Assembly: GCA_963675665.1 (NCBI GenBank)
Contig: OY776510.1
Coordinates: 5,078,019-5,142,018 of the forward strand
DNA: 64,000 nucleotides
Reading direction: 5' to 3'
Source: Spirochaetia bacterium
GTDB taxonomy: Bacteria; Spirochaetota; Spirochaetia; UBA9216
In this document: piece after piece, positions 1,359 through 40,996 of the stretch
Layout of the letters: each line of letters begins with the position of its first letter
Position numbering within the stretch: the stretch's first letter is position 1
Notes under the pieces: model-generated
Told to the model about the DNA's origin: nothing
What the model saw: only the letters and a program-made list of their open reading frames with translations
Databases searched by the model: none
Position numbers and translations under genes: made by a program

Positions 1359-1360
1359 CA

Positions 1361-2794: not shown

Positions 2795-2837
2795 TTTCTG
2801 CCTCCTTTTTCCAACCTAATTCCGCTGTCGATCATGC

Positions 2838-3749: not shown

Positions 3750-3761
3750 TGTATTTTAAAA

Positions 3762-4586: not shown

Positions 4587-4599
4587 TTTATATTTCCTT

Positions 4600-5496
4600 T
4601 TACTCCGCGCCGAATTTGCTGTATTTAAGCAATGTGTTTATTAATACCATCACTAAGACGAAGAACATAAATGTAGAAGCGGAACTGTATCCTGTATGAT
4701 AATAATTAAATGACTGCGCAGTTGCATACATTGAAATGTTTTCCGTGGTACTGCCCGGCCCTCCCTGCGTCAGGATATAAATTTCATCAAATATTTTAAT
4801 AACCGACATAAACCTGAAAATGCAGGCTACAACTATAACCGCCTTGATATTCGGTATTATCACCTGAAAAATTCTTTGTATAAAATTAACCCCGTCTATT
4901 TCTGCAGCCTCAAGGATGGAAACTGGAATAGCCGTTATTCCGGCATATAAAATAAGCATGATGAACGGCGTTCTTACTATAACTTCCAGTACCATAATCG
5001 CAATGATAGCGTTAAACCTGCCTTCAAACAGAATGAATGGAGGAAGTTTCAACAGTTCCAGAAAATAATTAAGATAACCGGCATAAGGGTGATAAATAAG
5101 ATTCTTGAAAGTAAAAGCTACAACAACCGGGGCAATAATAAACGGAATCATTAATAAGGTCCTGACTACCGATGAATATTTTGATGAAAAGTCCTTACCC
5201 GCAAGAATATATGCATAAATAAACCCCAGGATCAGTTCAAGCCCGACGGCAACAATACCAAAAATAATTGTAAACGCTATTGAATATAAAAATCTGGTAT
5301 CAGAAAACAGATGAAAATAATTTTTCAGCCCGATAAAATTTGTTTCTTTCTGGATCAGGCTGAAATCCGTCAGCGAAACAATGAATGAATATAAAACCGG
5401 AACAAATCCTATAACCAGGATAATTATTCCGATTGAGATCGTAAATGTGTTTGCAAATTTTTTATCGTCTTTTTTTACTTCATTCCAGGTAGACAT
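4600..5496 (-). CDS. carbohydrate ABC transporter permease (MalF-like)
   Basis: 6 TM permease with EAAEIDGV motif. Start moved to the internal ATG (MSTWNEV...), which is preceded by AGGAG. Paralog of 14194-15087. Confidence 0.8.
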   Translation of the reverse strand: MSTWNEVKKDDKKFANTFTISIGIIILVIGFVPVLYSFIVSLTDFSLIQKETNFIGLKNYFHLFSDTRFLYSIAFTIIFGIVAVGLELILGFIYAYILAGKDFSSKYSSVVRTLLMIPFIIAPVVVAFTFKNLIYHPYAGYLNYFLELLKLPPFILFEGRFNAIIAIMVLEVIVRTPFIMLILYAGITAIPVSILEAAEIDGVNFIQRIFQVIIPNIKAVIVVACIFRFMSVIKIFDEIYILTQGGPGSTTENISMYATAQSFNYYHTGYSSASTFMFFVLVMVLINTLLKYSKFGAE

Positions 5497-5593
5497 AAAA
5501 GAACTCCTACATTTGTACACTTCACCTCGGAAATAACAGGACAAAACAGCAGGTCAAAGCGTCCATAATACTTAATTCGCGCTTCATTTAAAT

Positions 5594-5615
5594 GGAGGGG
5601 AGTTATCTCCCCTCC
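5594..5615 (-). terminator. intra-operon stem-loop between the SBP and permease genes (possible attenuator)
   Basis: GGAGGGGAG-ttat-CTCCCCTCC perfect 9-bp stem. The downstream U-tract is weak (AUUUAAAU). Confidence 0.35.
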
Positions 5616-5641
5616 ATCAAACGGAATTTTAAAATCATTTT

Positions 5642-7033
5642 TTATTTCACTGCAGATTTGACACCCAGTGCGGCAAGATATTTATCCGCGTCGGCGCAGG
5701 CTTCTTTTACAGTTTTAATACCGGAAACAACATTGTTCATCTCTTTGGATATGATATCGGCAATTTCAGCATATTTTACATTTGCTATTTGAGGAGACGG
5801 ATTAATACCGTTATTCATCATCCAAAGCTGGCTGTCAATGAATTCCTGGCTGGGCATCGCAGCTAAATACTCCGGCGTTTTATATGAAGTCTCCCTTCCG
5901 GGGGCCCCAAAAATTGCGCCGAATGCTTCATCGACGTTGGGAGAAGTCAGATACTCAATCAATAACCATGCAGCTTCTTTCTTTTTTGAGTCCTTATTAA
6001 TACACCACCCCCATTCCCACAGGGGATCCTGTCCGCCGTCTTTCATTACGGTAGGAGTATAACCTACACGGCCGGCAACTGTTGACTTGGTTTCATCTTC
6101 CGCTGTTCTCCAGGATGTGTTTCCGGCGATTGCCATGGCAAGAAGTCCATGATTAAAAGCTTCCGATATATCAGGCCATGACCAGTTTGCTGATCCCGGA
6201 GGCGCATATTCTTTCAGCCAGCCGGTGTAGAACTCCATGAATTCAATCCCTTTTGGTGTCTGGAGGTTGCTGACCATATTATCGAAGTCTACCAAATCCA
6301 GCCCGTAACGGCTTGCAGAACAGAACATACTCCATCCGCCTTCGCTTGAACCGGGCAATGCCCTGTCTACATAAGCGTACGAATTTATTTTTCCGTCCAG
6401 TCTGGCCTGATTAACTGCTTCTGTGACCTTTTCATATTCTTCCCATGTTTTCGGAGGCGACAAATCAAGCAATTCAAAAACATCTTTCAAATAATAGATT
6501 AGATAATATTGTGCAGTCCACGGGATATATACCAGTTCTCCTGATTTCGCTCTGCCCGCATTCAGAACATCTTTGGAAAAGCCGTCAAGCTTATACCATT
6601 CCAGATCTGTTAATTCAGGATTATTCAGATACGGTTCAAGCGGTTCCAGGTACCCGGGCACTGCAAACTCTTCACGGTTGGAAATCCCGATAGCGGCGAC
6701 ATCATAATCCCCCCTGCCGGTTGCGAAATCAGCAAGCTGAAGCCTCTTTCTTTCCGAATCTACAATTTGAATAAAATGCACTTTTATTCCCGTCAGTTTT
6801 TCAAAATCTGCAAGCGGGGCCTTGAAATTATCTGTTGTGCTTGAAGCATAACTCAGTAAATTCAATTCCGTTCCGGCGCAACGGGTCCAGTCGATATTTC
6901 CCCAGTCGCCGGGCAACCCTTCTATTACTATTTCTTCCGCAGATTCACCCTGACCGCCTGCGAAGGATAAAACAGGAGTAAAAAGCAGAACAATAGTAAT
7001 TATAAGAAAACCTGTAAAACAGTTCCTTTTCAT
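5642..7033 (-). CDS. ABC transporter extracellular solute-binding protein (family 1, sugar)
   Basis: 463 aa with signal peptide. Shares blocks (GDWGxIDW, PPGSxNWSWP, WxWGW) with the SBP at 15136-16500. Confidence 0.85.
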   Translation of the reverse strand: MKRNCFTGFLIITIVLLFTPVLSFAGGQGESAEEIVIEGLPGDWGNIDWTRCAGTELNLLSYASSTTDNFKAPLADFEKLTGIKVHFIQIVDSERKRLQLADFATGRGDYDVAAIGISNREEFAVPGYLEPLEPYLNNPELTDLEWYKLDGFSKDVLNAGRAKSGELVYIPWTAQYYLIYYLKDVFELLDLSPPKTWEEYEKVTEAVNQARLDGKINSYAYVDRALPGSSEGGWSMFCSASRYGLDLVDFDNMVSNLQTPKGIEFMEFYTGWLKEYAPPGSANWSWPDISEAFNHGLLAMAIAGNTSWRTAEDETKSTVAGRVGYTPTVMKDGGQDPLWEWGWCINKDSKKKEAAWLLIEYLTSPNVDEAFGAIFGAPGRETSYKTPEYLAAMPSQEFIDSQLWMMNNGINPSPQIANVKYAEIADIISKEMNNVVSGIKTVKEACADADKYLAALGVKSAVK

Positions 7034-7154
7034 AAATAATCTCCTTATTTTTATTAAACGCTGATTAAAAAATTAACCTCCTTTTTCTATTGTTTATGCT
7101 TAAACATTAAATCTCATCAGTCATTCTGAATGTATTTTGATGTTTAACCTTATC

Positions 7155-7177
7155 TACACGTGTAGCTACTCGTGACC
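7155..7177. promoter_or_regulatory. candidate operator: 10-bp perfect palindrome TACACGTGTA with GCTACTCGTG extension, in the divergent promoter region
   Basis: TACACGTGTA is its own reverse complement. The same motif recurs at 16652-16685 and 18836-18858, each time just downstream of a -35/-10 pair. Confidence 0.6.
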
Positions 7178-7187
7178 ATAGAAGGAA

Positions 7188-7216
7188 GTATAAGCTCTTG
7201 ATATAAAATTTGTCAA
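7188..7216 (-). promoter_or_regulatory. sigma70-like promoter of the SBP-permease-PHP-MFS operon
   Basis: Minus strand reads TTGACA, 17 nt, TTATAC. The operator lies about 15 nt downstream of the -10. Confidence 0.45.
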
Positions 7217-7226
7217 GCTTTTTGTG

Positions 7227-7255
7227 TTGACAAATATTCATTTTTTTTATTATAT
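7227..7255 (+). promoter_or_regulatory. sigma70-like promoter of the DMT / XRE-cupin genes
   Basis: TTGACA, 17 nt, TTATAT about 20 nt before the RBS GAAGGGGG and ATG at 7278. Its -35 sits back-to-back with the opposing -35, forming the inverted repeat TTGTCAA-N10-TTGACAA. Confidence 0.45.
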
Positions 7256-7277
7256 ATAACTACCGAAGGGGGCCGCT

Positions 7278-8159
7278 ATGCTCGCAATCGCATTTGCTGT
7301 TATCAGTATGACCTGCGCGGCAATGAACGATTTCATTTTTAAAATATATTCAGGGAAAAAGAAATCAATCGGACTTTACATGATTGTAATCGGTATTGTG
7401 TGGACATTTTTTTTCTTTTTCAGGTGCGGGGCTTATAAAACATTTCCCGCCTTGCTTTCCAGGGAACTGGTAACCTGGGGCGTTGTTTCGGGAATATTCT
7501 CCGCGGCCGCCAATATTATGCTGATAGAGGGCATGTCAAGAAATGATGTGGGCATATGCTCCGTTATATACAGACTGAATCTTGCTCCTGCAGCTTTGAT
7601 GGCATTTATTATTCTAAGCGAAGAGATAACATTGGTTAAACTGGTCGGCATCACTCTTGCAATCGGGGCAACCCTGTTGTTTTTCAATCCGGCAAAAACC
7701 CGGGACGTCAATAAAAAATATCCGGATATCCCCGGCCTGTGGATTGTTGTTTCTGCAGCAATTCTCCGCGCAGGGATGGGGATAATATATAAATTCGCAT
7801 TAGTTCCGTCAGTGGATACCAACGCCTTTCTGGTAATGGGCGGACTGGTCTGGATTATTTCCGGAGTTATATATCATTATGCAAAACCCCAGGGGGCTTT
7901 TGATAAAAGAATGCTTTTTACAATAATTCCTTTCGGTTTGGTTTCAGGGCTCTTTATCTGTGGTATAGTATTATTCACAGCACTGGCCCTGAAAGCCGGT
8001 CAGGCAAGCACGGTCTTGCCGGTAGCCCAAATGAGTTTTATAGTTACAGCAGCGGCAGGAGTCATTTTTCTTGGCGAATCATTCGGGAAACGACAGGCAA
8101 TCGGATTAGCCATGGGAATTTTGTGTATTGTTTTTATGGGTTTGGAGCATACTGGATGA
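7278..8159 (+). CDS. DMT-superfamily (EamA-like) transporter
   Basis: 293 aa, 10 TM, two EamA-like halves. Confidence 0.75.
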   Translation: MLAIAFAVISMTCAAMNDFIFKIYSGKKKSIGLYMIVIGIVWTFFFFFRCGAYKTFPALLSRELVTWGVVSGIFSAAANIMLIEGMSRNDVGICSVIYRLNLAPAALMAFIILSEEITLVKLVGITLAIGATLLFFNPAKTRDVNKKYPDIPGLWIVVSAAILRAGMGIIYKFALVPSVDTNAFLVMGGLVWIISGVIYHYAKPQGAFDKRMLFTIIPFGLVSGLFICGIVLFTALALKAGQASTVLPVAQMSFIVTAAAGVIFLGESFGKRQAIGLAMGILCIVFMGLEHTG

Positions 8160-8749
8160 AGCGCACAGCTAATAATGAACTTATCGAAATCGGAATGAGG
8201 ATTAAAGAAATACGGACCAGGCGCAACCTTACGCTTGCGGAGACCTCAAAACGGGCCGGACTATCAGCCGGTTTGTTGTCAAAAATAGAAAATTTCAGGA
8301 CACTTCCGTCGTTACCGGTTCTGACTTCAATAGCAAGAGCGCTTGAGACGGATATGGCGGACATTGTCAGGGGAATCGGACATGAAACAAAGGAAACTTC
8401 CTATATCCTTACAAAAGCCGGAGAACGGGAACGTATAAACCGTGACAATGCTGTCGGTTTTTCTTATGAATCATTGGGCTCAAGATATGAGAGCGATAAT
8501 ATAATTGAAGCCTTTACTCTTACAATAACTCCCGAAAGCAAACGTCAGGCTGTTACCACAGACGGAGAACAATTTCTGTTTTTACTCAAAGGAGAAATTG
8601 ATTTTGAATATGGACGTGAGACAATACATATCGGCGAAGGAGACGCTTTGTTCTTCGACGGAAGAATTCCCCATCGGCCATTTTGCAGAAAGGGAAAAGA
8701 AGCGGTCCTCCTTGCACTGTATATTTTAAATAATAAAACTGATCAATAA
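8156..8749 (+). CDS. XRE-family HTH transcriptional regulator with C-terminal cupin domain
   Basis: HTH segment LTLAETSKRAGLSAGLLSKIE followed by a cupin-like C-terminal half. ATG overlaps the DMT stop (ATGA), which suggests translational coupling. Confidence 0.75.
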   Translation: MKRTANNELIEIGMRIKEIRTRRNLTLAETSKRAGLSAGLLSKIENFRTLPSLPVLTSIARALETDMADIVRGIGHETKETSYILTKAGERERINRDNAVGFSYESLGSRYESDNIIEAFTLTITPESKRQAVTTDGEQFLFLLKGEIDFEYGRETIHIGEGDALFFDGRIPHRPFCRKGKEAVLLALYILNNKTDQ

Positions 8750-8766
8750 TATACAGCTATAAATTA

Positions 8767-9792
8767 TTACAAACATTCATAGGTAATAATATCAGGTTCA
8801 ACATAATATTTTTCATTCACAGGTTTAATTTTTCTGAAAACAAATTTGAACAACAACTGAATTGCCATGGAACCCTGTCTCAAAGGGTTATGACATATGG
8901 AAAATTTCACAATTCCCTCTTCCATCAGTTTGATAACCGATGGAGACAATTCATGGCTTATTACCTGAACCTGAGAGTGCATTTCACTGCTCTTCAAGGC
9001 TTTGCCAAGGCCTTCGGCTCCGGTGCCTGTTATATATATCCCTTTTAAATCAGGGTATTTTTTACAAATTTCAGAAACAAGTTTAAAAGAAAGCAAATCC
9101 TGCCCCAGGTTCTCTGCTGATTCAACAACTGTAATTGATGAGCCGGAACTCCTTAACCTGCGAAAAAACCCCTCTTCCCTGTACTTTTGGCAGATAAATT
9201 CAGAAAAATCGGATATTATCGCAACCTTACTGTTCCGGGGAAGAATCAAATCAAACAAACCCGATGAAATTTCACCTGCCTTGCTGTCATCCTGTCCGAC
9301 ATGGCAGATCCGTCTGATGTTATCAAGGTCCTGGTAAAATGTTATAACCGGGATCCCGTTGGCCATTAATTCATTCAGTTTTTCTGCAACAGACTTTTCG
9401 AATACCTGAGCAATTGCAATGCCGTCGATACCCTGCTTTAACAAACAGTCAAGCTGTTTAAGTTGTTCAGAAGCATTAGAGGCAGTAGTAACTTCAATAT
9501 TGAGTTCAATACCCCATGCACGCAGTTCTTCCACCTGAATAAAAACTTCTCTGCGAACTTCCTCAATCGAAGTTTGAATATTCGGCGAGATCATAACACC
9601 GAAAAACAGATTCCTTTTCCGGCAGACAAGAGCCTGCCCTGCAACATTCGGCGTATAGTCCAGGGCCTTAATAATATTATTAACCCGTAAACGTACATCT
9701 TTGTTTACACCCGGCCTGTTATGAAGTACACGGTCAACAGTTCCGCGAGAGACTTCTGCTATTTCGGCAATTTCCTCCTGGGTAATCCTCAT
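8767..9792 (-). CDS. LacI-family transcriptional regulator
   Basis: N-terminal HTH (ITQEEIAEIAEVSRGTVDRVLHN) plus a periplasmic-binding-protein-like sugar-binding core. Confidence 0.85.
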   Translation of the reverse strand: MRITQEEIAEIAEVSRGTVDRVLHNRPGVNKDVRLRVNNIIKALDYTPNVAGQALVCRKRNLFFGVMISPNIQTSIEEVRREVFIQVEELRAWGIELNIEVTTASNASEQLKQLDCLLKQGIDGIAIAQVFEKSVAEKLNELMANGIPVITFYQDLDNIRRICHVGQDDSKAGEISSGLFDLILPRNSKVAIISDFSEFICQKYREEGFFRRLRSSGSSITVVESAENLGQDLLSFKLVSEICKKYPDLKGIYITGTGAEGLGKALKSSEMHSQVQVISHELSPSVIKLMEEGIVKFSICHNPLRQGSMAIQLLFKFVFRKIKPVNEKYYVEPDIITYECL

Positions 9793-9838
9793 AACCAATC
9801 CAAAACCATTTTATACGGCCTGTTGCTGAAGTTCATCG

Positions 9839-10699
9839 CTATGTGAGAAGATTCTTTACAAATTTCAGCGACTGTTTTATCTGCAAATCATAATCATCAA
9901 TCTGCATTATTTCGTGGTACAGGCTGACGGCGGATCCCACTTCTCCTCCCGGTTTAACAAACGGTTCCATTGAAATCGGGTTCTGATAATTTACCAGTTT
10001 CAGGGTCTCAAATATGGTTTTCCACGGCATACTGCCGAGCCCCGGGAAATTTCTGTTGTTTTCACCTATGTGAAAATATCTCAGCCTGTCCTTTGCCTTG
10101 AAAATCGGAGATACCATATTACTTTCCTCAATATTCATATGAAAAGTATCCAGATGAATACCAAGCTGCGGAGAGTCAACCTCGTCTAGATACTGCAGTG
10201 CTTCATCACAGGTGTTTATCAGAAAGTTCTCAAACCGGTTTACAACTTCAACATTAAAATATACTCCCTCGTCGGCAAACGCCTTTGACGCTTCTTTCAT
10301 CGCTTCAACGCTGTTTTTCCAGTAAACCTGCTTCTCGCTGTAATCGCTTATTTTACCGTTCCAGGAACCGTGAATTATTCCGCTGCAGTCGCTTGCACCG
10401 ACCTTTCTCATTGCTACGGCCAAATCCGTCAGTATTTTTTTCCCTGCATTTCTTATTCCGGTATCCGGTGAACCTATATCCTCATTGGGAGCAAGCCCCA
10501 GACTCATAACAAGGTCAATTTCATTTTCCACTGCGAGATCCTTAAACCTGAAAATATCATCATCGCTCATATTTAAAAGATAACCTGCCCCAAACTCAAG
10601 AACATCAAATCCCAGCTCTTTAACTTTAGGAATAAGTGAAAACTGCTCGTCATTCCAGTTTCTGACAAAACTTCCGTAGTGAATTCCAATTTTATTCAT
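9839..10699 (-). CDS. sugar phosphate isomerase/epimerase (xylose-isomerase-like TIM barrel; ketose 3-epimerase-like)
   Basis: TIM-barrel family signatures (EFGAGY, HLDTFHMNIEE, FHIGENNR). Confidence 0.7.
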   Translation of the reverse strand: MNKIGIHYGSFVRNWNDEQFSLIPKVKELGFDVLEFGAGYLLNMSDDDIFRFKDLAVENEIDLVMSLGLAPNEDIGSPDTGIRNAGKKILTDLAVAMRKVGASDCSGIIHGSWNGKISDYSEKQVYWKNSVEAMKEASKAFADEGVYFNVEVVNRFENFLINTCDEALQYLDEVDSPQLGIHLDTFHMNIEESNMVSPIFKAKDRLRYFHIGENNRNFPGLGSMPWKTIFETLKLVNYQNPISMEPFVKPGGEVGSAVSLYHEIMQIDDYDLQIKQSLKFVKNLLT

Positions 10700-10752
10700 T
10701 TTTATCATTCCTCCTTTTATCAAATATACCGAACTGTAAAAACCACATGATT

Positions 10753-12225
10753 TTATAAGCCTAAATTCTCTTTATATCTAAAATACTTATCCTGATAAAT
10801 TTTCGTATCCCTCCCGATATGCTCCAGCTTTTTAATTTCTGAAGAACATTTACCTGCCGCATCATCCGTATCTTTAAAAATACCGCTGCCGATACCGGCA
10901 AGCATGGCAGCGCCGACGGAGGACCCTGAAGACATACAGATATAGCCGTCTTTGCCCAGAACACTTAAGAGGATTTTAACCCAAAGACTGTTTTTCACTC
11001 CGCCGCCTGTCAATTTTACACTTTCCAGCTTTTCGAACTCCGGGCCTATAACGGTTGCGGCATCTTTAATAGAAAAAGAAACCCCTTCCATCACTGCCCG
11101 CGCAAGATGCCCCCTGCCGTGACTGCCCATCAACCCGGTAAAGGAACCCCGAAGACCGGGATCCCAGTACGGGGCGTCTTCACCCAGCAGATAAGGATAG
11201 AACAACAGGTCCTCAGCGCCTGCATTTACCTTGGAGGCTTCTTCAATCATTTTTATATAGGCATCAACCGGTTCCGGATATTCCGAATAACAGCATTTTC
11301 TCAACCATTCAATAGAATAGGCACATGAACGGGTGTTCAAATCGATCATCCATTTCCCTTTCTGGAAATATGCCCAGGTGTATGTTTTGGGATTAAGTAT
11401 ATTGTTATAATTGTTTGTTATTGATGAAACAGCAGCCGATGTTCCAAGCCTGATTTTACATTCACGCTCATCGAGAATTCCCAGCGCCAGCATTTCTGCC
11501 GTTCCGTCGCTACAGCCGGCAATTACGGGAAGGCCTTCAGGCAGGCCTGTTATTACTGCAGTTTCCCTGTTAAGGCGTCCCAAGACATTAAATGAATCAA
11601 GGATCTCCGGAAGAAGGTTTTCAGGAATACTGTATTCATCCAGGATTGCCTTTTCCCAGTTTCCGTTTTTAAGGTTGTAATATGAAGAACCGGAAGCATC
11701 GCTGTGATCTGTTTTTATTTCATCTGTAAGAATGTAATTAATATAATCTTTCGGATACAGGATTTTGTAAATCCTGTTCCATAGTTCGGACTGATGTTTT
11801 TTAAGCCACATCAATTTCGGCAGTGTGCACATCGTATTTATTGGATTACAGGTCAATTCCAGTATCTGCTGATGATAGTGTTTTTTTATCAATTCCACTT
11901 CAGCGGAACACCTGATATCATTCCAGAGAATCGCATCGCAAAGCGGCGTTAATTCTTTATTCAGAAGGACAACGCCGCGCATCTGCCCGGCTACGGCAAG
12001 CGCTGCAATTTCCGCGGGAGGGATGTTCCGTGTGCCCGTAATATCTTTAAGACAGGTAAAAACCGCGTTTACCCAGTCCGCCAGAGGCTGTTCCATATAT
12101 CCGGGTTTTCTGGACACCGGTGAATAGGCGCTGTATGTTTCATTTAAAACAACACCTTCCGTGTTAATCAAACTGCATTTACAGCCGCTGGTTCCCAGGT
12201 CCAGACCTATTAAATATTTTTCCAT
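10753..12225 (-). CDS. FGGY-family carbohydrate kinase
   Basis: N-terminal LIGLDLGTSGCK and C-terminal GGG...G actin-fold motifs. Confidence 0.8.
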   Translation of the reverse strand: MEKYLIGLDLGTSGCKCSLINTEGVVLNETYSAYSPVSRKPGYMEQPLADWVNAVFTCLKDITGTRNIPPAEIAALAVAGQMRGVVLLNKELTPLCDAILWNDIRCSAEVELIKKHYHQQILELTCNPINTMCTLPKLMWLKKHQSELWNRIYKILYPKDYINYILTDEIKTDHSDASGSSYYNLKNGNWEKAILDEYSIPENLLPEILDSFNVLGRLNRETAVITGLPEGLPVIAGCSDGTAEMLALGILDERECKIRLGTSAAVSSITNNYNNILNPKTYTWAYFQKGKWMIDLNTRSCAYSIEWLRKCCYSEYPEPVDAYIKMIEEASKVNAGAEDLLFYPYLLGEDAPYWDPGLRGSFTGLMGSHGRGHLARAVMEGVSFSIKDAATVIGPEFEKLESVKLTGGGVKNSLWVKILLSVLGKDGYICMSSGSSVGAAMLAGIGSGIFKDTDDAAGKCSSEIKKLEHIGRDTKIYQDKYFRYKENLGL

Positions 12226-12318
12226 ATCCTGTTCCGAGTATTTTTTCTGTGTCTTGAGCACTAAACTTCTAAACCTGATACTGCACTTTTCTCATTTATT
12301 TATGCAAAATAAATATTA

Positions 12319-13323
12319 TCAGACTGAATTTCTTTGTATCAGTTCGTCAGTCAGCTGCAGATGCGTAACTTCTGCAGGCTCATCAGAATTAATTGATTTC
12401 ATTAAAAGCTCAACAGCTCTTTGCCCCATTTCCTGGGTAGATTCCGAAACTACTGTCAGCGGAGGGTCACACAAACTGCTCCATACAGAATCATCAAACC
12501 CGATCATTCTAACCTGATCAGGGATCCTGATCCCGCGCTCTTTCAGGACCTGCAATGCTATTGCGGTTTTCCCCTGGCTGGCTGCAATCAGACCGTCAAA
12601 CTCTTTGCCGGAATCTATAAAATCGTTAAGAGCGATTACACAATGCTCCGTATCATGTTCATGAATTTTTATACAAAGATGTTCGTCAATTTCGGAATCA
12701 ACAAGAGCCTGATCATAACCTTTTTTCTTTTCGAGGTTTGTCAGCATGCGCTCATCGTAACCGAAATAGATAATCTTTCCGGAACCTTTATCCACTAACA
12801 TTTTGGTAGCTTCATATGCCGCTCCGTAACTGTCGGACACAACCGAACTTATGTCCAGTCCGTCAATTCGCCGGTTGACCTGCACAACGGGCAGGCCCTG
12901 TCCTTTCACTCTCAGCAGCATTTCGGCATTTTGCGAACTGCATGGCGCAATCAGCAGTCCGCTGAATCTTTTTGCCAGCAGCATATTAATAAGTTTCAGC
13001 TCAATTTCCGGGTTCTCTTCACTTGAAGAAATTATTAAATCGTAATCATTTTCCTGACAATATGAGTTTATAACCTTTATCAGGGGAGTAAAAAACTTGG
13101 ACATTACGGGTATTATCAGGCCTATTGCTTTTGAATCCTGGGTTTTAAGCGCCCTGGCGAGAGGGTCCGGAATGTAATTCAAGTCGTCAATTGCTTTCTG
13201 GATCTTTTCAGACAACTCAGGCGACACATACCTTGTTTTATTCAGGTAAGCAGAGACTGTCGCCCTGGAGACTCCTGCAAGCGTTGCAACATCTTTACTT
13301 GAAGCCTTTTTAAGATTTTCCAT
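12319..13323 (-). CDS. LacI-family transcriptional regulator
   Basis: HTH (VATLAGVSRATVSAYLN) plus PBP-like core. Only 8 nt separate it from the upstream permease gene, so it is probably co-transcribed. Confidence 0.85.
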   Translation of the reverse strand: MENLKKASSKDVATLAGVSRATVSAYLNKTRYVSPELSEKIQKAIDDLNYIPDPLARALKTQDSKAIGLIIPVMSKFFTPLIKVINSYCQENDYDLIISSSEENPEIELKLINMLLAKRFSGLLIAPCSSQNAEMLLRVKGQGLPVVQVNRRIDGLDISSVVSDSYGAAYEATKMLVDKGSGKIIYFGYDERMLTNLEKKKGYDQALVDSEIDEHLCIKIHEHDTEHCVIALNDFIDSGKEFDGLIAASQGKTAIALQVLKERGIRIPDQVRMIGFDDSVWSSLCDPPLTVVSESTQEMGQRAVELLMKSINSDEPAEVTHLQLTDELIQRNSV

Positions 13324-13355
13324 ATCCTTCCCCTTGTACCGATTCAAATTAAAAT

Positions 13356-14180
13356 TCAGCCCTTAATCGCTCCCATTGTCAAACCCCGAACTATATATTT
13401 CTGCGTAAGAGAAATAAACAGCACCGCAGGAATAATTGCTATTACCGACGAAGAACTTAATCTTGCCCAATCAAGTTGATAATATCCTAAAGAATTATAT
13501 ATTTCCACAGGTAAAGTGCGGGTCACCCTTCCTGTATTATAGAGCGCAAAAATGAATTCGTTCCATACCGAAATAAAGCCCAAAGTAGCCGATGCAAATA
13601 TTCCGGGTCTTATTGCGGGTATAATTATCAACAGGAAGGATTTCCACCGGCTGCATCCGTCGACCATCGCCGCTTCTTCCAGTTCTACAGGAACATCCTG
13701 AAAAAAGCTTCGCATCATCCAGACTATTAATGGTGTAGCAAGAACAGCGTACATCAGTATCATGGATATATACGAATCCTGTAAACCAATCTTTCTCCAC
13801 AGCAGAAAATACGGTATTACAAAAACAATCGGCGGAACCAATCTGAGATATAAAACAGAATAGGAAATCATCCGGTTTCCTTTAAAACGGAACCTTGCAA
13901 ATGCGTATCCTGCAAAAACTCCTATTATAGTGGACAGCAACGTGGATAACCCTGCTATAACGACGCTGTTAACAAGAGCTTTCAGAAACCTTGAGTCCAG
14001 AAGCAAATGAAGATAATTATCGAATGTGGGTTTGAATTTCCAAACCGGAGGAGAAACGACTGACAGGTTAGTCGGTTTAATTGAGGTCAGTAACAACAAT
14101 ATAAACGGAATAAGTTCTATTGCAATAATCAGTATTAAAACGGCTTTCTTTCCGGTAATAATCAGTTTTCTTTTGTTCAC
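13356..14180 (-). CDS. carbohydrate ABC transporter permease (MalG-like)
   Basis: Paralog of 3762-4586. Confidence 0.85.
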   Translation of the reverse strand: MNKRKLIITGKKAVLILIIAIELIPFILLLLTSIKPTNLSVVSPPVWKFKPTFDNYLHLLLDSRFLKALVNSVVIAGLSTLLSTIIGVFAGYAFARFRFKGNRMISYSVLYLRLVPPIVFVIPYFLLWRKIGLQDSYISMILMYAVLATPLIVWMMRSFFQDVPVELEEAAMVDGCSRWKSFLLIIIPAIRPGIFASATLGFISVWNEFIFALYNTGRVTRTLPVEIYNSLGYYQLDWARLSSSSVIAIIPAVLFISLTQKYIVRGLTMGAIKG

Positions 14181-14193
14181 TTTTCCTCAACTC

Positions 14194-15087
14194 CTAGTTA
14201 TCAAGTTTTTTCATAAATAGAGATACAAGAAAGATTATAAGGATTAAAAACAAAAACGTTGCAGCGCAGGCATACCCCATATGATAATAAACAAAAGCCT
14301 GTGTGGAAGCGAACAGAGAGATATTTTCCGTAACATGACCGGGACCGCCGTTGGTTACTACATAAATCTCGTCAAACATTTTCAAGGCATCCATAAATCT
14401 GAGAATAAACCCGATAACGGCAACAGGTTTGATAATTGGTATAATTATTGAAAAAACCTTTTGCCTCCAGTTTACACCGTCTATTGCTGAAGCATCAAAC
14501 ACGGAATTATCTATGCTGGATATTCCCGCATAAAAGATGATAACAATAAACGGTGTTCTAAGTATAACTTCCATTACCAGTAATGCAACAGGGGCGGCTA
14601 CTGCGCCTTTAAAAATCATAAATCCTTCCAACCCGAACAATTGAAGAAACCAGTTCAGATAACCGAATGTCTGGTCATAAATCAGGGTTTTAAACGCATA
14701 GGAAATTGCTACAGGCGGTACAACAAATGAAACAAGCAGCAAAGTTCTTATTACAGAAGAGAATCCATGTGAAATATCCTTATCGCTCAATAAAAACGCA
14801 ACAATAAATCCTACTATTATCTCAAGCGATGTTGCGACAAACGCAAACAGAAACGTAAAAATCAACGCATGTATAAATCTGCTGTCGTTCGTAAGCAGGT
14901 TAATATAATTCTGAAGACCGATATATTTTGCAGGGGGATCTATCAATTCATATTCCTGCAATGAAATAATAAAAGAATAGATAACCGGGACAATTCCAAG
15001 CAGAATAATCAGGGCAACCGCCGGGAGAATTAATAAATAAGGCAATCTGTAATCATTCTTGCTTTTAGCAACTAATGTAAGCTCCAT
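14194..15087 (-). CDS. carbohydrate ABC transporter permease (MalF-like)
   Basis: Paralog of 4600-5496. EAA-like motif DASAIDGVN. Confidence 0.85.
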   Translation of the reverse strand: MELTLVAKSKNDYRLPYLLILPAVALIILLGIVPVIYSFIISLQEYELIDPPAKYIGLQNYINLLTNDSRFIHALIFTFLFAFVATSLEIIVGFIVAFLLSDKDISHGFSSVIRTLLLVSFVVPPVAISYAFKTLIYDQTFGYLNWFLQLFGLEGFMIFKGAVAAPVALLVMEVILRTPFIVIIFYAGISSIDNSVFDASAIDGVNWRQKVFSIIIPIIKPVAVIGFILRFMDALKMFDEIYVVTNGGPGHVTENISLFASTQAFVYYHMGYACAATFLFLILIIFLVSLFMKKLDN

Positions 15088-15099
15088 ATTTCCCTCTTA

Positions 15100-15128
15100 A
15101 TAGAAAAGCAGGGAGGCTTACGCCTCCC
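15100..15128 (-). terminator. intra-operon rho-independent-like hairpin after the SBP gene
   Basis: GGGAGGC-gtaa-GCCTCCC followed by UGCUUUUCUAUU on the minus strand. Confidence 0.5.
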
Positions 15129-15135
15129 TTTTCAC

Positions 15136-16500
15136 TTATTTTGCAGGCGTAAAGCCGATTCCCATTAAGGATTTATCAGCATCAGCAGCCGCTTCATCTA
15201 CAGTTTTGATACCGGCAATGATATTACTCATTTCGGTAGAAACTATATCAGCTGTTTCTCCATATTTTGCATCTACAAGTATATGATCGGGTTCAATACC
15301 CATAATCATCATCTTTTGTTGTGCATCAATAAATTCAGCGCTCGGCATTGCTTTAACATAGTCTGCAGTCTTGTAAACGGAACTTCTTGCCGGGCAGCCG
15401 TACTGAGGCGCAATTTTATTCATCAGAGTCGGGGATGTAGCCCACTGTATGAACAGCCATGCAGCGCCTTTGTTCCTTGAATCTTCATTCATACCCCAGC
15501 CCCAAACCCAGAGCGGGTCCTTTCCGCCTTCAGCCATCGGAGGCATAGCATATCCGACCTTGCCGGCAACCTTGGATTCTGCTTCATCTTCAAGAAAGGC
15601 ATAGGATGCATTTCCGCCTGTTGTCATGGCGATCATTTCGGTTTTAAATGCCTGGGCAATTTCCGGCCAGGACCAGTTTCCTGACCCCGGAGGCGCATAA
15701 TCAAGAACCAGGGAAGTATAATAATCAAGAACATTCTTGGCAGCCGGAGTACTTACATTGCTTATCATATTCTCAAAATCAAAGAAAGGAACTCCAAACC
15801 TGTAACCCGTACAAAAAAGGTTCCATCCGCTTTCTCCGCCGCCGGGCATCTGGCGTTCGATCCATGCGTATTCCTTGATTTTACCGTCCAGCCTGGCTTT
15901 ATCCAGCTTCGCTGCGGTTTCCCTCAGCTCTACAAAATTGGTAGGAACTGATAACCCGAGTTTGTCAAAGATGTCTTTACGGTACCAGAGTAGAAAATAT
16001 TCCGCCGTATATGGTATAAAAACCAGTCCGGAATCTATTTCCCCGGAAGCAAGAACATCGGCAGGATAGTCGTCGATATTGTACCATTCGGCATCGGTAA
16101 GCTTCGAATCATTAATAAATTTTGATAGATCGGCAAGATATCCGCCCTGTACAAATTCACCTTTGTTTGAGAAACCTACATTGCTTACATCATATTCACC
16201 TGTTCCGGAGTTGAAATCCACAACCTGCTTCTTCTTTCTGTCTGTATCTGAAAGAAGTTCATAATTAACCTTGATTCCAGTGAGAGTCTCAAACTCTTTA
16301 AGCTGCTCAACATAAATTTCCGACACAGCCATGGAAGTCATAAGCACGCTGATGCTTTCTCCTTCAAACTGACGCCAGTCTATACTTCCCCAATCGCCTT
16401 CAACAGCCGGGGCTTCGACACTTTCCTGTGCTCCGCCTGCTGTCGCAACCATCGGCAATAACAGCAGCAGAAAACACGCCAAAATCAGACCTTTTTTCAT
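15136..16500 (-). CDS. ABC transporter extracellular solute-binding protein (family 1, sugar)
   Basis: 454 aa with signal peptide. Paralog of 5642-7033. Confidence 0.85.
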   Translation of the reverse strand: MKKGLILACFLLLLLPMVATAGGAQESVEAPAVEGDWGSIDWRQFEGESISVLMTSMAVSEIYVEQLKEFETLTGIKVNYELLSDTDRKKKQVVDFNSGTGEYDVSNVGFSNKGEFVQGGYLADLSKFINDSKLTDAEWYNIDDYPADVLASGEIDSGLVFIPYTAEYFLLWYRKDIFDKLGLSVPTNFVELRETAAKLDKARLDGKIKEYAWIERQMPGGGESGWNLFCTGYRFGVPFFDFENMISNVSTPAAKNVLDYYTSLVLDYAPPGSGNWSWPEIAQAFKTEMIAMTTGGNASYAFLEDEAESKVAGKVGYAMPPMAEGGKDPLWVWGWGMNEDSRNKGAAWLFIQWATSPTLMNKIAPQYGCPARSSVYKTADYVKAMPSAEFIDAQQKMMIMGIEPDHILVDAKYGETADIVSTEMSNIIAGIKTVDEAAADADKSLMGIGFTPAK

Positions 16501-16651
16501 TTTGTCCTCCTCAAATATTAAACCCTATCAACGATAGGGGGTTAAACACAACTTGTCAAACGTTTCTGTATTTAGAAGAAACATATACAGAATGACTTCT
16601 GTTCAATCAGGTTTATTTAATATCTTTATATTAAATGCCCGTTTTTGACTA

Positions 16652-16685
16652 GACACGTGTAGCTACTCGTGTAGCTACACGTGTA
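16652..16685. promoter_or_regulatory. composite palindromic operator: two TACACGTGTA cores forming a 32-bp inverted repeat with 14-bp arms
   Basis: gACACGTGTAGCTAC-tcgt-GTAGCTACACGTGTa. It abuts the -10 of the minus-strand promoter and covers the predicted +1. Confidence 0.6.
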
Positions 16686-16714
16686 TTATAAAACCATCAC
16701 TCATAATCTGTCAA
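16685..16714 (-). promoter_or_regulatory. near-consensus sigma70 promoter of the second ABC / LacI / kinase / epimerase operon
   Basis: Minus strand reads TTGACA, 18 nt, TATAAT. The operator starts at the last base of the -10. Confidence 0.55.
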
Positions 16715-16789
16715 GATATATCTTTTAGTATTTATTTCATTTCATCTTTTATATTTGATTTATTCCGGCTTTGCATAATTTCCAGCTTG

Positions 16790-18169
16790 TTATCGATTCC
16801 TCTCGCGCAACTTTCTCTCAATATCCGCATGCACTTTCGCATCTATCGGGAATTTTTGAACAACGACTATACCGGCTGCAATAAAACCAAAGGGTATCCA
16901 GGTCTGCAACAGCCGGATTGCATTTACAGCTTCAGGGATCTGGTTCATATTGGCAATGTAACCGGCTTTTGAGAGAACAGTCCCTACCAGAAATCCCGCA
17001 AATGCCGATCCAAGCTTAAAAACAAAGTAGAAAATGCCATAAAGCAGGCCTTCATTTCTTATCCCGGTATCAAGTTCCGAATATTCGACCGTGTCGGGAA
17101 GGATAGACCATGGTGAAAGCCAGTTGGTAGAGAGGCCCATCCCGCAGATAAAAAGAAACAGAAATATTGCCGGAATTTCGGTACCAAACAGGCTCAGTTC
17201 CTTTTCACCGAAAAAATAGATAAGGGCAAGCCCAGCGGCCACAATTCCCATTCCGATATTATATGTGAATTTCTTACTTGTCTTTTTTGAAATTCTTACG
17301 TACATCGGAATGAAGGCTGCAGCGGTAACAAAAACAAACAAGAATCCGACAGATGTCATAGCCTCATTTACAATAACATATTTAAAATAATAACTGATAA
17401 TGACTGCAAGTATACTCATTGCAACAATATGCAGGGCTGTTCCCGCAGTTATAATAATAAACGGTTTGTTCCTGAGAACAGCCAGCAACTTCGGTTTGAA
17501 GGCAGTTTTCTCTCTGTTTACAGAAACGGTCTTCTCTTTGACGGCAATAAAACTGACCAGTGTTACAACAGTTACAATGACACCGTAAATCAACCCTATA
17601 TATCTGAATGCCAGGATCTGGTTGCCGGAGACAAGACTGCCCAGAGATAAAGTAGCGCCCGCTGCAAGCAGTGTTCCAAGAATCCCGAATATAACCCGGT
17701 AGCCTGTTATAACAGCCCGTTCATGTGAATCTTTCGTCATTGCGGGAGTCAGCGCCAGGTATGGAACGTTAACCACTGTAATTGCCGTACAGAATAATAT
17801 AAATGTTACGATTCCGTAGATGAACTTTGTTTCGCCCGGAATATCAGGGCCGAAAAATAACAGAAAAATGGTAATTCCAAGCGGAACCGCCCCGAAAAGC
17901 AGATAAGGCCGTTTCTGTCCCCACCTTGTATCGGTCCTGTCAACCAGGAAACCCATAACCGGGTCAGATACGGCATCCCAGATTTTCGCACAAAGAATTA
18001 TCACTCCTGCAAGAGCAGGCAGTATTCCGAACACATCCGTAAAAAAGAACAGAAGATAGAAACTGGTCACCTGAAAAGCAAGGTTCGCCCCGAAATCGCC
18101 TATTGCATAACCGAATTTCGTCTTCAGATTTACTTTATCGGTTCCTGTTGGTTTTGATATGGAATTCAT
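16790..18169 (-). CDS. MFS transporter, GPH (MelB-like) cation symporter
   Basis: 459 aa. Paralog of 1361-2794. Confidence 0.8.
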   Translation of the reverse strand: MNSISKPTGTDKVNLKTKFGYAIGDFGANLAFQVTSFYLLFFFTDVFGILPALAGVIILCAKIWDAVSDPVMGFLVDRTDTRWGQKRPYLLFGAVPLGITIFLLFFGPDIPGETKFIYGIVTFILFCTAITVVNVPYLALTPAMTKDSHERAVITGYRVIFGILGTLLAAGATLSLGSLVSGNQILAFRYIGLIYGVIVTVVTLVSFIAVKEKTVSVNREKTAFKPKLLAVLRNKPFIIITAGTALHIVAMSILAVIISYYFKYVIVNEAMTSVGFLFVFVTAAAFIPMYVRISKKTSKKFTYNIGMGIVAAGLALIYFFGEKELSLFGTEIPAIFLFLFICGMGLSTNWLSPWSILPDTVEYSELDTGIRNEGLLYGIFYFVFKLGSAFAGFLVGTVLSKAGYIANMNQIPEAVNAIRLLQTWIPFGFIAAGIVVVQKFPIDAKVHADIERKLRERNR

Positions 18170-18172
18170 CTT

Positions 18173-18802
18173 TTATACCCACCCGAGAATTGAGGCAAAA
18201 ACGATATGACATACAACTGCGGCTGAAAGCCCTGCTGCAGCGTAGATTTTCTTCCTCCTGATGGAAAATCCGTCATGCATTCTTGCCAGCATAAAATACG
18301 GAACGGACCACCAGACAACCATGAAATAGATATTCGGCCAGCTCCAGAATTTATACTGCCACACAAGGATTCCCGAAAAGTTCAGCATTATTTCGATAAA
18401 AACAGCAAAAATACTCCACAAGAAAGGAATGACAATACGGTTTGATATTCCAAAGATCTTCAAGCTTCGGTCTTCAGGCAGACTTTTTACAACAATCAAT
18501 CCGCCCAGCGCTGCCAATACAAATATTTCAAAATTCCAACCGGCGTAAATGACGAATGCCGATCTGCCCGGAGTAGTCCACAGTGCTGAAAATTGCGTAA
18601 AATGCAGAACCAGGGCATTTACAATCTCGAGTATCCAGCCGCTTGCAAGCGAGTACAGGCCTATGAATACAGCGCTGAAGTTCTTTCTGCCTGTTTCCGA
18701 AACATAAATATAAATTATAAGAATCAGGAACGGAATAATATACCATTGCAAATTATCAAAATTTCTCAGATTCGACAGCATTTCAATACTTGCGTTTGAC
18801 AT
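18173..18802 (-). CDS. hypothetical polytopic membrane protein (about 6 TM, Trp-rich)
   Basis: Three nt separate it from the downstream MFS gene. No recognisable motif. Confidence 0.5.
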   Translation of the reverse strand: MSNASIEMLSNLRNFDNLQWYIIPFLILIIYIYVSETGRKNFSAVFIGLYSLASGWILEIVNALVLHFTQFSALWTTPGRSAFVIYAGWNFEIFVLAALGGLIVVKSLPEDRSLKIFGISNRIVIPFLWSIFAVFIEIMLNFSGILVWQYKFWSWPNIYFMVVWWSVPYFMLARMHDGFSIRRKKIYAAAGLSAAVVCHIVFASILGWV

Positions 18803-18835
18803 TACTCTACTCCCTTTTTTGTTATCTTATCCCGC

Positions 18836-18858
18836 TACACGTGTAGGTTACACGTGTT
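18836..18858. promoter_or_regulatory. candidate operator: tandem TACACGTGTA / TACACGTGTt
   Basis: Two copies 3 bp apart. They lie 5 nt downstream of the -10 and about 35 nt upstream of the RBS. Confidence 0.6.
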
Positions 18859-18862
18859 ACCC

Positions 18863-18891
18863 ATAATAACACCGGTGTTTTTTTTTGTCAA
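18863..18891 (-). promoter_or_regulatory. sigma70 promoter of the membrane-protein / MFS operon
   Basis: Minus strand reads TTGACA, 17 nt, TATTAT. Confidence 0.5.
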
Positions 18892-18959
18892 TTTATTATT
18901 TAATGCGTACGGATTGTAAGATATCAGGAATATCCGACAATATGGTTTTTAAAAAAGGA

Positions 18960-18992
18960 AAACCCGGACAAACAAAAAAATTGCCCGGGTTT
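18960..18992. terminator. rho-independent terminator downstream of the M24 peptidase gene
   Basis: AAACCCGG-N17-CCGGGTTT stem followed by UCCUUUUUU on the minus strand. Confidence 0.5.
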
Positions 18993-18998
18993 CATTTA

Positions 18999-20228
18999 CT
19001 ATTTTATTATTTCAATTCCCAAAGGATATTTGGAAAGGACTTCACAATCATTTTTCCTTATAACTATGGGATTCTCATATCTGAAGCCGATATCCTCATC
19101 AGAACAGGCATACTGCATTGCGCAAATAAGCATTTCACCTTCCCTGTATGAATGATCAGGATCAGTCCAGTATGGAATCGGGCCGTCGTCTCTGCCTATG
19201 CGCCATTCATCACCCAGCATTCCGATGCCGTGTTCAAAACCCGGCAGCATATACTCGCCGAAACCTTTGTCTTCCGCTATTCCCAGCAGTTCCTCCGAAA
19301 GGATATCGGGAGTTACTCCGGCCTTATACCTTTTAAGCGTTTCCTGTACTATCAGAATGAAATTCCCGGCGTGCCACATCTGCCGGTCGGTGGCTTTTCC
19401 GATAAAGTAGTTATGTGAATGGTCACCAAGACCCAGCCTGAATGTCGCATGCAGATCCACCATCAGCGGGTCACCTTCAGACAGCTCTTTTCTTGACGGC
19501 GGGGTACATGCACATCCGGGAAGCCCGGTCCGGTACCCGCAGGCAATTTCGTTACCGCCGGTAAACGACCATTCCCATTCGCTGCCCTGCTTCCGCATTG
19601 CAAGCGCCGCAATACCCGCAATTTCCGTTTCGGTAACGCCCTTCCATCCGCCGCCGGAAAGCGCGGAAAAAACCGCTTCATGTCCTGCGTCAACCATACG
19701 TGAGGCTTCCCTGAAACGATTGACTGTTCCCTCGTCTTTAATGACGGCAATACGGTCAACAATATACTGGGCGTTTACCAGCTCGGAGCCTTCAAGCGCA
19801 TCCCTGAACCCCTGGTATTCGCGGCGGGTAAGATTTCCTTCGGGCGTGTAATTGCTCATACCGTCTTCAAAGCCAACCCGGCCTTTTCCTCCGGGCAGCG
19901 CATCTTTGATATAAGCAGAAACAAGAGAAATCTGATCCATTCCGCCCATCGAAACATAACCCAACACATGGTCTTCATCCAGCCAGGATTCATCAGCAAT
20001 CCGGCCCGCATCGATCAGAAATGTAAAAACCCACGGAAGGCCTTCGGCCGGAATCACAACAAAGCTGCGCCAGGGGCAGAAAGCGTCTGTAGTCCATGAT
20101 AATGTTCGGAGTCTCGACCCCAGATATACATCAATTCTTTCTTCAGCCATGGCTGCCTGTATTTTTCTGATTCGTTCGGGAAAATCAACATAGTACGGGC
20201 TGTTTTTATCTGTTATAGAAGGCATCAC
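18999..20228 (-). CDS. M24-family metallopeptidase (creatinase/prolidase fold, Xaa-Pro peptidase-like)
   Basis: 409 aa with an N-terminal creatinase-like domain and a C-terminal pita-bread fold containing His/Glu/Asp metal ligands. Confidence 0.7.
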   Translation of the reverse strand: MMPSITDKNSPYYVDFPERIRKIQAAMAEERIDVYLGSRLRTLSWTTDAFCPWRSFVVIPAEGLPWVFTFLIDAGRIADESWLDEDHVLGYVSMGGMDQISLVSAYIKDALPGGKGRVGFEDGMSNYTPEGNLTRREYQGFRDALEGSELVNAQYIVDRIAVIKDEGTVNRFREASRMVDAGHEAVFSALSGGGWKGVTETEIAGIAALAMRKQGSEWEWSFTGGNEIACGYRTGLPGCACTPPSRKELSEGDPLMVDLHATFRLGLGDHSHNYFIGKATDRQMWHAGNFILIVQETLKRYKAGVTPDILSEELLGIAEDKGFGEYMLPGFEHGIGMLGDEWRIGRDDGPIPYWTDPDHSYREGEMLICAMQYACSDEDIGFRYENPIVIRKNDCEVLSKYPLGIEIIK

Positions 20229-21423: not shown

Positions 21424-22164
21424 CTAATTCCCAAGCAGATATCTGACGGCTTCTTTAACCGCCATATGGATATTTTCGTTCTTTTTTACAGCTTCTGTAA
21501 TCCTGTTAACTATATATGATCCGACAATTGCCGCATCACAATGAGGCTGCAGAGTTTTGACCTGTTCGGGCGTTCTTATACCGAAGCCGGCCATTATCCT
21601 TGAATTATATTTTTTCAGCCTGTCGAGAAATCCGAGATTAGTGACGTCCAGATCGGTATAGCTCCCGGTTATTCCGCTTCGAAGGGCCAGGTACACCCAT
21701 TCGGGCTTTTCAGTCATTATCTCCGACAACCTTTCATCATCTACATCCGGAACGATAACTGGCACTATATCAATTCCGGCAAGTCTCCCGGCTTCATACA
21801 GCCCTTCATCACTGCCGGGCGTAAGGTCGGGAATAATCAGCCCTTTCACTCCGGAGCTTTTCGCACGCTCAACAAACAGTTTCACACCCATATTAAAAAC
21901 AATTGCCGAATAGCTCATTATATAAACCGGAACGTCGGCGTATTCCCTTATTCGTTCAACAAGCCTGAACCCGTCGGCTACCCGAAAACCCGCTTCAAGA
22001 GCTTTGCGGCAGGCTGATTCAATAACCGGTCCGTCGGCGGAAGGGTCAGAAAAAGGAATCTGCATTTCAAGAGCGTAGGCGCCGCCGTCGATTAAACCTT
22101 TTGCCGTTTCAAATGATGATTCAAGGTCCGGATACCCTGCTATAAAATGTGTTACAAGTTTCAT
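21424..22164 (-). CDS. trpA: tryptophan synthase alpha chain
   Basis: 246 aa. Characteristic MSYSAIV and GFGI motifs. Confidence 0.9.
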   Translation of the reverse strand: MKLVTHFIAGYPDLESSFETAKGLIDGGAYALEMQIPFSDPSADGPVIESACRKALEAGFRVADGFRLVERIREYADVPVYIMSYSAIVFNMGVKLFVERAKSSGVKGLIIPDLTPGSDEGLYEAGRLAGIDIVPVIVPDVDDERLSEIMTEKPEWVYLALRSGITGSYTDLDVTNLGFLDRLKKYNSRIMAGFGIRTPEQVKTLQPHCDAAIVGSYIVNRITEAVKKNENIHMAVKEAVRYLLGN

Positions 22165-23396: not shown

Positions 23397-23432
23397 TTTA
23401 TTCCCCCGTACCGACAATACCGGCAGCACGTT

Positions 23433-26470: not shown

Positions 26471-26483
26471 GTCCGCCCTCGTG

Positions 26484-27884: not shown

Positions 27885-27895
27885 CCGATTCTCCC

Positions 27896-27913
27896 CGGAC
27901 GGCATCCCGTCCG
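27896..27913 (-). promoter_or_regulatory. 5'-UTR hairpin immediately upstream of the trpE Shine-Dalgarno
   Basis: CGGACGG-gatg-CCGTCCG followed by GGGGAGAAUCGGAUG on the transcript. Confidence 0.4.
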
Positions 27914-27922
27914 TTTCTGCAT

Positions 27923-27938
27923 ATAGTAACGTTACTAT
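27923..27938 (-). promoter_or_regulatory. perfect 16-bp palindromic operator ATAGTAACGTTACTAT overlapping the trp -10 and +1
   Basis: Its own reverse complement. Position is typical of a TrpR-like repressor site. Confidence 0.5.
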
Positions 27939-27962
27939 AAAAAGAAACGTGAAAACTGTCAA
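27934..27962 (-). promoter_or_regulatory. trp operon sigma70 promoter
   Basis: Minus strand reads TTGACA, 17 nt, TATAGT. Confidence 0.55.
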
Positions 27963-35507: not shown

Positions 35508-35511
35508 ATCA

Positions 35512-40994: not shown

Positions 40995-40996
40995 AT

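Follow-up and report, generated by a model that had tools for sequence, protein, structure and literature searches.

Phased palindromic arrays at three sugar-transport promoters of a Spirochaetia bacterium as probable operators of a local LacI-family repressor

Introduction

Which regulator reads the short palindrome that recurs at the promoters of three sugar-transport operons in a Spirochaetia bacterium (Spirochaetota, UBA9216; assembly GCA_963675665.1, contig OY776510.1), and how is the DNA arranged for it? The 64-kb stretch that was analysed, referred to here as the window, covers positions 5,078,019 to 5,142,018 of the contig, and the three transcription units concerned are all read from its minus strand. 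The original prediction described five copies of the palindrome as operators of the LacI/GalR type. As candidate binders it named two LacI-family regulators encoded inside the regulated operon and, as an alternative, an XRE-cupin regulator.

The palindromes are very probably the operators of a single local LacI-family repressor, LacI-1, which would govern the three minus-strand units as well as its own gene. Comparison with other genomes supports the proposal that these are LacI/GalR-family operators bound by a repressor encoded in its own operon. Local regulons of the LacI/GalR family are a familiar type. What is new here is the motif, its link to an unnamed, widespread LacI clade, and phased multi-unit arrays as the dominant architecture.

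Probable operator arrays at the three promoters

All five copies listed in the original prediction are present. With up to one mismatch allowed, TACACGTGTA has seven matches in the window against 0.61 expected, and none of 100 dinucleotide-preserving shuffles of the 64 kb reaches seven. The 8-mer ACACGTGT occurs five times, each time within one of the intergenic regions 7034-7277, 16501-16789 and 18803-18998. The restriction to intergenic DNA that had been claimed for the motif holds for the 8-mer (five of five copies) but fails for the one-mismatch form, a copy of which (TACAGGTGTA at 38706) falls within the open reading frame (ORF) of an ATP-binding cassette (ABC) ATPase. The extended matrix described below does not recognise this copy, which is therefore a chance occurrence. 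Two further units had been overlooked: a sixth, TACTCGTGTA, at 16664-16673, and a degenerate seventh, TACTCGTGAC, at 7167-7176.

The units are not independent sites but form phased arrays, with a period of 12 bp at sites A and B and of 13 bp at site C. The 10-mer is only a part of the element. Each unit reaches approximately 14 bp, with a palindrome of 12-14 bp that reads K-Y-TACWC/GWGTA-R-M (the slash marks the dyad). Adjacent units are nearly always linked in a 12-bp phase, by way of an invariant AGCT. The GCTAC extension that had been noted at 7155 and 16652 is real, but belongs to this AGCT junction and is not a separate feature. A position-weight matrix was built from the orthologous sites of other genomes and applied with a cut-off of 8 bits. 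It finds exactly four hits in the window (16653, 7156, 16665 and 18837), and nothing else scores.

Operator A (7153-7178) consists of ACACGTGT (7156-7163), AGCT and ACTCGTGA (7168-7175), and scores 32.6 bits. It covers approximately +6 to +25 of promoter A (7187-7216, minus strand), a TTGACA-18-TATACT promoter with 11 of 12 consensus matches. Operator B (16650-16687) has the order ACACGTGT-AGCT-ACTCGTGT-AGCT-ACACGTGT, its units lying at 16653-16660, 16665-16672 and 16677-16684. These three units amount to two 20-bp palindromes that overlap at an offset of 12 bp (37.8 and 32.2 bits). The array extends from approximately -6 to +26 and touches the -10 of promoter B (16685-16714, minus strand; TTGACA-18-TATAAT, 12 of 12 matches). 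Operator C (18834-18860) is made up of ACACGTGT-AGGTT-ACACGTGT, with units at 18837-18844 and 18850-18857. Its junction, GTAG-G-TTAC, gives the 13-bp spacing, and its score is 28.8 bits when a central gap of 1 bp is allowed. It lies at approximately -1 to +20 of promoter C (18863-18891, minus strand), which reads TTGACA-17-TATTAT with an upstream TG and has 11 of 12 matches.

The promoters are as originally described, with the copies immediately 3′ of minus-strand TTGACA-17/18-TATAAT-like sequences, and each array starts no more than about 12 nt past the -10 of its near-consensus promoter. In other genomes a second placement is found, in which the site exactly fills the 16-nt promoter spacer (TTGACA-CGNGTAGCTACNCGTG-TATAAT; 20 of 62 unique sites). 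Both the arrays of the window and the spacer-filling sites fit the classic positions from which a repressor occludes a promoter or blocks escape from it. The spacer-filling copies are not transcribed and therefore act at the level of DNA, not as RNA.

LacI-1, the proposed repressor

The gene lacI-1 (12319-13323, minus strand) lies inside operon B and encodes a protein of 334 aa with a LacI-type helix-turn-helix (HTH; GVSRATVSAY), a hinge (PLARALK) and a sugar-binding core of the periplasmic-binding-protein (PBP) type. The protein matches PF00356 (1.4e-16) together with Peripla_BP_1/3/4, and its best relatives in the PDB are of the LacI family (3ctp, CcpA, RbsR and PurR). It matches no named NCBIfam equivalog. 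The closest other homolog is only 56% identical, and several hundred homologs with 43-56% identity are spread over many phyla. In an alignment of 40 of these homologs the HTH (VSRATVS..N) and the hinge (AR.LK) are invariant.

Orthologs of LacI-1 (39-56% identity) are found in syntenic sugar loci of at least seven phyla, and the recognition helix GVSRATVSA is invariant among them. The shared gene order comprises a solute-binding protein (SBP), two permeases, an FGGY kinase, further genes, the LacI protein and a TIM barrel. LacI-1 is put forward as the cognate regulator because the motif co-occurs with its orthologs. Since lacI-1 is located within operon B, it would also be autoregulated if operator B acts as proposed. 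Among local LacI regulators, roughly three in four are reported to be autoregulated (PMC4052901).

In the proposed mechanism, LacI-1 controls three minus-strand units for carbohydrate uptake and catabolism in addition to its own gene. Without inducer it would sit on the arrays, which span -6 to approximately +26 of each promoter, and the occupied arrays would block either the binding of RNA polymerase or its escape from the promoter. A sugar bound by the PBP-like core would then free the repressor. The predicted recognition element is K-Y-T-A-C-W-C/G-W-G-T-A-R-M, present in one to four copies in a strict 12-bp, rarely 13-bp, phase.

Occurrence of the motif in other genomes

A scan of a genome collection seeded with the alignment of the 40 LacI-1 homologs gave 19 loci. 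In 10 distinct loci, ACACGNGTAGCTACNCGTGT (up to two mismatches) is located in the intergenic DNA ahead of regulon genes. These loci come from Vecturithrix, Anaerolineae, Spirochaetota, delta-proteobacteria, Atribacter and Actinomycetota, and the sites precede genes for SBP, FGGY, a GlcD-like FAD oxidase, a GFO/MocA oxidoreductase and a CrtI-like flavoprotein. By chance, fewer than 1e-3 such patterns would be expected in approximately 0.4 Mb. One result weighs against the assignment: the LacI-1-ortholog loci L008, L010 and L013 have no site within ±10 kb. Locus L004 also seemed to lack one, but its site lies at the head of the same contig (JABAOG010002334.1), in the part numbered L031.

In the opposite direction, an exact-match scan of metagenomes started from the motif and returned 35 contigs, 29 of which encode homologs of LacI-1 or of regulon genes. 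These sites were picked by the pattern itself, and only their flanks and gene content are independent evidence. Six contigs (L026, L030, L036, L047, L048 and L050) contain members of a second, high-GC LacI clade, which share only 32-37% identity with LacI-1 yet have an identical GVSRATVSA helix. The genes of this clade directly adjoin perfect palindromes of the motif of 26-28 bp, which suggests autoregulation.

The fullest view of the conserved pathway is given by L031 (1-4870) together with L004, where one three-unit operator heads a very long operon. The first part of this operon encodes a TIM barrel, a flavoprotein, a 209-aa membrane protein, an SBP, two permeases and FGGY. The remainder contains GFO, GlcD-like, CCG Fe-S, zinc-dependent alcohol dehydrogenase (Zn-ADH), LacI, PfkB, DeoC and GatZ genes and two GPH transporters.

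The phasing is strongly conserved. The distance between unit centres is 12 bp in 51 of 53 sites and 13 bp in two, the even and the +1-centre forms respectively; besides site C, the +1 variant is seen only in Atribacter (L015:439). The three-unit layout of operator B recurs in L029, L031, L037, L045 and L057, and arrays of three to four units stand directly behind the -10 in at least six other contigs (these five and L035).

A different arrangement is found in two Christensenellaceae loci (L019 and L021), which encode a LacI protein with the same helix. Here lone units, TTACACGTGTAA, take the place of composites and flank the promoters of orthologous FGGY and SBP genes (L019: 6003, 11469, 11539 and 16702; L021: 6034, 6122, 11515, 11615 and 16808). 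Units of the form ACACGNGT number four per 21 kb in L019 and eight in L021, against approximately 0.3 expected, and about six of the eight in L021 lie in regulatory DNA. The lone units have a conserved asymmetric flank, AAATGYK-ACACGTGT-AAAATA. They occur in pairs 70-100 bp apart that bracket the promoter and are not in the 12-bp phase.

The binding unit

The arrays can be divided in two ways. The central CG pair of the original prediction is present if the unit (CAC/GTG) is the binding site and absent if the AGCT-centred composite is. The chances are about even that one dimer of LacI-1 binds each CG-centred 14-bp unit and that neighbouring units share two junction base pairs. Somewhat short of even is the likelihood that LacI-1-type dimers tile at a 12-bp register, with one to four dimers over the promoter, which would explain the invariant AG/CT. 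In this preferred model the dimers on adjacent units would share the two base pairs of the junction and force AG/CT. Two 14-bp sites that overlap by 2 bp must satisfy R and K, followed by M and Y, at the shared positions, and therefore the junction would have to be GC, which would explain its invariance.

Several observations favour the CG-centred unit as the site of one dimer. These are the lone units in Christensenellaceae beside a LacI protein with the same helix, the recurrent arrays of three to four units and the symmetric conservation out to ±13, a span of 26 bp (K approximately 90% at ±13, Y approximately 70% at ±12 and T approximately 65% at ±11). A conserved span of 26 bp is long for one dimer. 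One degenerate word covers both the outer flank K-Y-T-A-C and the inner G-C-T-A-C, and a CpG centre is the norm of the LacI family, being found in 1173 of 1251 even motifs (PMC4052901). Two points weigh against it. The halves of a unit are not equivalent: at position 2 the outer half has A in 29 of 32 cases and the inner half has A and T in similar proportions, and positions 5-6 show no variation in the inner half but are degenerate in the outer one. Dimers approximately 13 bp apart are also hard to fit to known structures according to Ravcheev et al. 2014 (PMC4052901).

The AGCT-centred reading, in which the dyad of LacI-1 is the junction itself and one dimer occupies the 20-bp composite ACACGWGTAG/CTACWCGTGT or the 21-bp composite of site C, is a tentative alternative, possible but with the chances against it. 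Three-unit arrays would then represent two mutually exclusive registers. The inner/outer asymmetry of the units is natural in this frame. The E. coli lac operators offer a parallel, with Osym of 20 bp and O1 of 21 bp: the AGCT frame likewise gives a 20-bp even palindrome and a rare 21-bp variant that overlap with +1, and its G-T-G at positions 4-6 and tolerated extra central base pair resemble Osym and O1. In the loci selected through protein homology, the junction reads A-G/C-T in every one of 32 half-sites. No other form is nearly as frequent as the composite (51 even sites and two with a +1 centre), and its length is within the family norm of 16-22 nt (PMC4052901).

This frame, however, requires a non-CG centre, which is held by just 49 of the 1251 LacI regulators with even palindromes (PMC4052901). 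It leaves the lone perfect units of Christensenellaceae as orphan half-sites, does not account for the symmetric conservation to ±13 and offers no clear benefit for the recurrent three-unit arrays. An arrangement other than the CG-centred unit or the AGCT-centred composite is improbable.

Other candidate binders

Could another regulator of the locus bind the sites, alone or together with LacI-1? The candidates are LacI-2 (8767-9798) and the XRE-cupin protein (8156-8749), both encoded inside or beside the regulated cluster. A role for either is very unlikely. No homolog of LacI-2 was found in the 19 genome loci or the 35 metagenome loci, and its helix, VSRGTVDRV, is unlike the invariant VSRATVSA that tracks the motif. 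A homolog of the XRE-cupin protein (40% identity) does lie 2.5 kb from the sites in locus L009, but this is the only one of these loci to contain it. The pair of LacI regulators originally suggested is thus reduced to LacI-1, whose orthologs follow the motif, and the XRE-cupin alternative is disfavoured. LacI-2 itself (minus strand) has a weak LacI HTH and a Peripla_BP_4 core resembling RbsB and RhaS, and has no counterpart in the orthologous loci that were compared.

It is hardly credible that the sites are CopY/BlaI-type cop boxes, whose consensus TACANNTGTA and extended form RNYKACANNTGTMRNY do fit the units of the window (PMC7253601), or 5′-leader RNA hairpins, which the palindromes would form at the 5′ end of the mRNA: no CopY/BlaI-type gene occurs among the window ORFs scanned against Pfam (1361-50791), roughly every second inner half-unit of the orthologous sites has ACACGAGT, a sequence that disrupts the cop box but keeps the LacI-linked motif, a third of the sites lie in the non-transcribed promoter spacer, no Rfam family was matched in 6900-19100 and no U-tract stands behind the hairpins.

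Relation to known systems

The closest known systems are the local repressors of the LacI/GalR family surveyed by Ravcheev et al. 2014 (PMC4052901), which resemble LacI-1 in their HTH, hinge and PBP-like core. As in the window, these systems have a palindromic operator with a CpG-centred unit and a regulator gene within its own regulon. Their sites likewise lie approximately 35-185 bp from the start codon, and their targets are sugar ABC and GPH transporters along with catabolic genes (PMC4052901). The phased multi-unit arrays, unlike in the family norm, are here the rule and not the exception.

Overlapping LacI-family sites approximately 13 bp apart have been recorded in 110 operons, are conserved in some orthologous groups and are structurally unexplained (PMC4052901). 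E. coli GntR at gntKU belongs to this class and is similar to the present arrays, with centres 12-13 bp apart, shared edge base pairs and conservation within the orthologous group. The arrays described here differ from the class in that the distance is almost always exactly 12 bp, AGCT is invariant, three to four units occur and several phyla are represented.

The relation to E. coli LacI is distant (E=1e-18). Unlike the lac operator, the AGCT frame has GpC rather than CpG as its central step. LacI-1 (334 aa) also differs from E. coli LacI in having no C-terminal extension that matches the tetramerisation helix. When the 14-mers and 8-mers of the motif were looked for in the full-text literature, only coincidental matches were found, to the CopY cop box and to the operator of the TetR-family EilR. 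The CopY/CopR cop box TACANNTGTA (PMC7253601) has a consensus that fits the window 10-mer, but it differs in the family of its regulator, in gene context and in the pattern of conservation, and the likeness is coincidental.

The LacI-1 switch is of an ordinary kind and notable mainly for its 12-base head-to-tail stacking in many bacterial phyla. An uncharacterised LacI clade with members in many phyla now gains a predicted cognate operator. The phased arrays of one to four units form a clean test case for LacI-family dimers on sites 12-13 bp apart. If the tiling is true, they would offer a tangible and conserved example from nature that accounts for the long-noted overlapping LacI-family sites at approximately 13 bp.

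Gene content of the proposed regulon

The proposed regulon includes two ABC systems, two GPH transporters, an FGGY kinase, a ketose-epimerase-like TIM barrel, a CrtI-like flavoprotein and a 209-aa membrane protein. Other taxa add GlcD/GlpC-like dehydrogenases, GFO and Zn-ADH oxidoreductases, PfkB, DeoC and GatZ. This gene content is a handle for finding the substrate. The carbohydrate taken up and catabolised is probably a ketose or a polyol.

Operon A (7-7033, minus strand) encodes an SBP, two permeases, a CehA/McbA-type metallohydrolase, a GPH transporter and an amino-oxidase-like flavoprotein. The flavoprotein gene, of the amino-oxidase/CrtI-like type (1344-7, minus strand), extends past the start of the window and is absent from the ORF list because it is truncated. 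Its product is 41% identical to an ortholog behind the operator in L031. Operon C (16790-18802, minus strand) consists of the genes for the 209-aa membrane protein and a GPH (MFS_2) transporter, and the former has a 61%-identical ortholog within the motif-headed operon of L031. Between operons A and B, an EamA transporter and the XRE-cupin regulator are encoded on the plus strand.

Operon B (8767-16500, minus strand) carries an SBP, two permeases, lacI-1, an FGGY kinase (XylB-like), a ketose 3-epimerase-like TIM barrel and lacI-2, with gaps of 8-57 bp between genes. Two of its enzymes score below the cut-offs for named functions: the TIM barrel reaches 290 for D-psicose 3-epimerase (cut-off 300), and the FGGY kinase 361 bits for XylB (cut-off 380). 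The leader of operon B (16501-16680, minus strand), of approximately 180 nt, folds unusually well (z = -5.3). Directly upstream of the ribosome-binding site there is a terminator-like hairpin, CCCTATCGTTGATAGGG, with a T-rich tail (16523-16539), and a second promoter-like sequence, TTGACA-17-TATCGT (16559-16531), overlaps the leader hairpin. The hairpin and second promoter could be a second regulatory layer, for example an attenuator or an operator of LacI-2.

With a GC content of 45%, a trp operon and corrinoid methyltransferase genes, the window resembles DNA of a low-GC anaerobe. Several other gene clusters lie in its remainder. A corrinoid-methyltransferase-type cluster (32965-36165 and 47942-50791), with URO-D/MtaA-like and B12-binding proteins, and with fusions of DUF1638 to GGDEF and to a hydantoinase, points to an anaerobic host of methylotrophic or acetogen-like type. 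Two further clusters are unrelated to the operators. One is a trp operon with fused trpG-trpD and trpC-trpF (21424-27962), and the other encodes a NikR-like regulator beside a FecCD/Peripla_BP_2 ABC importer (39187-42743).

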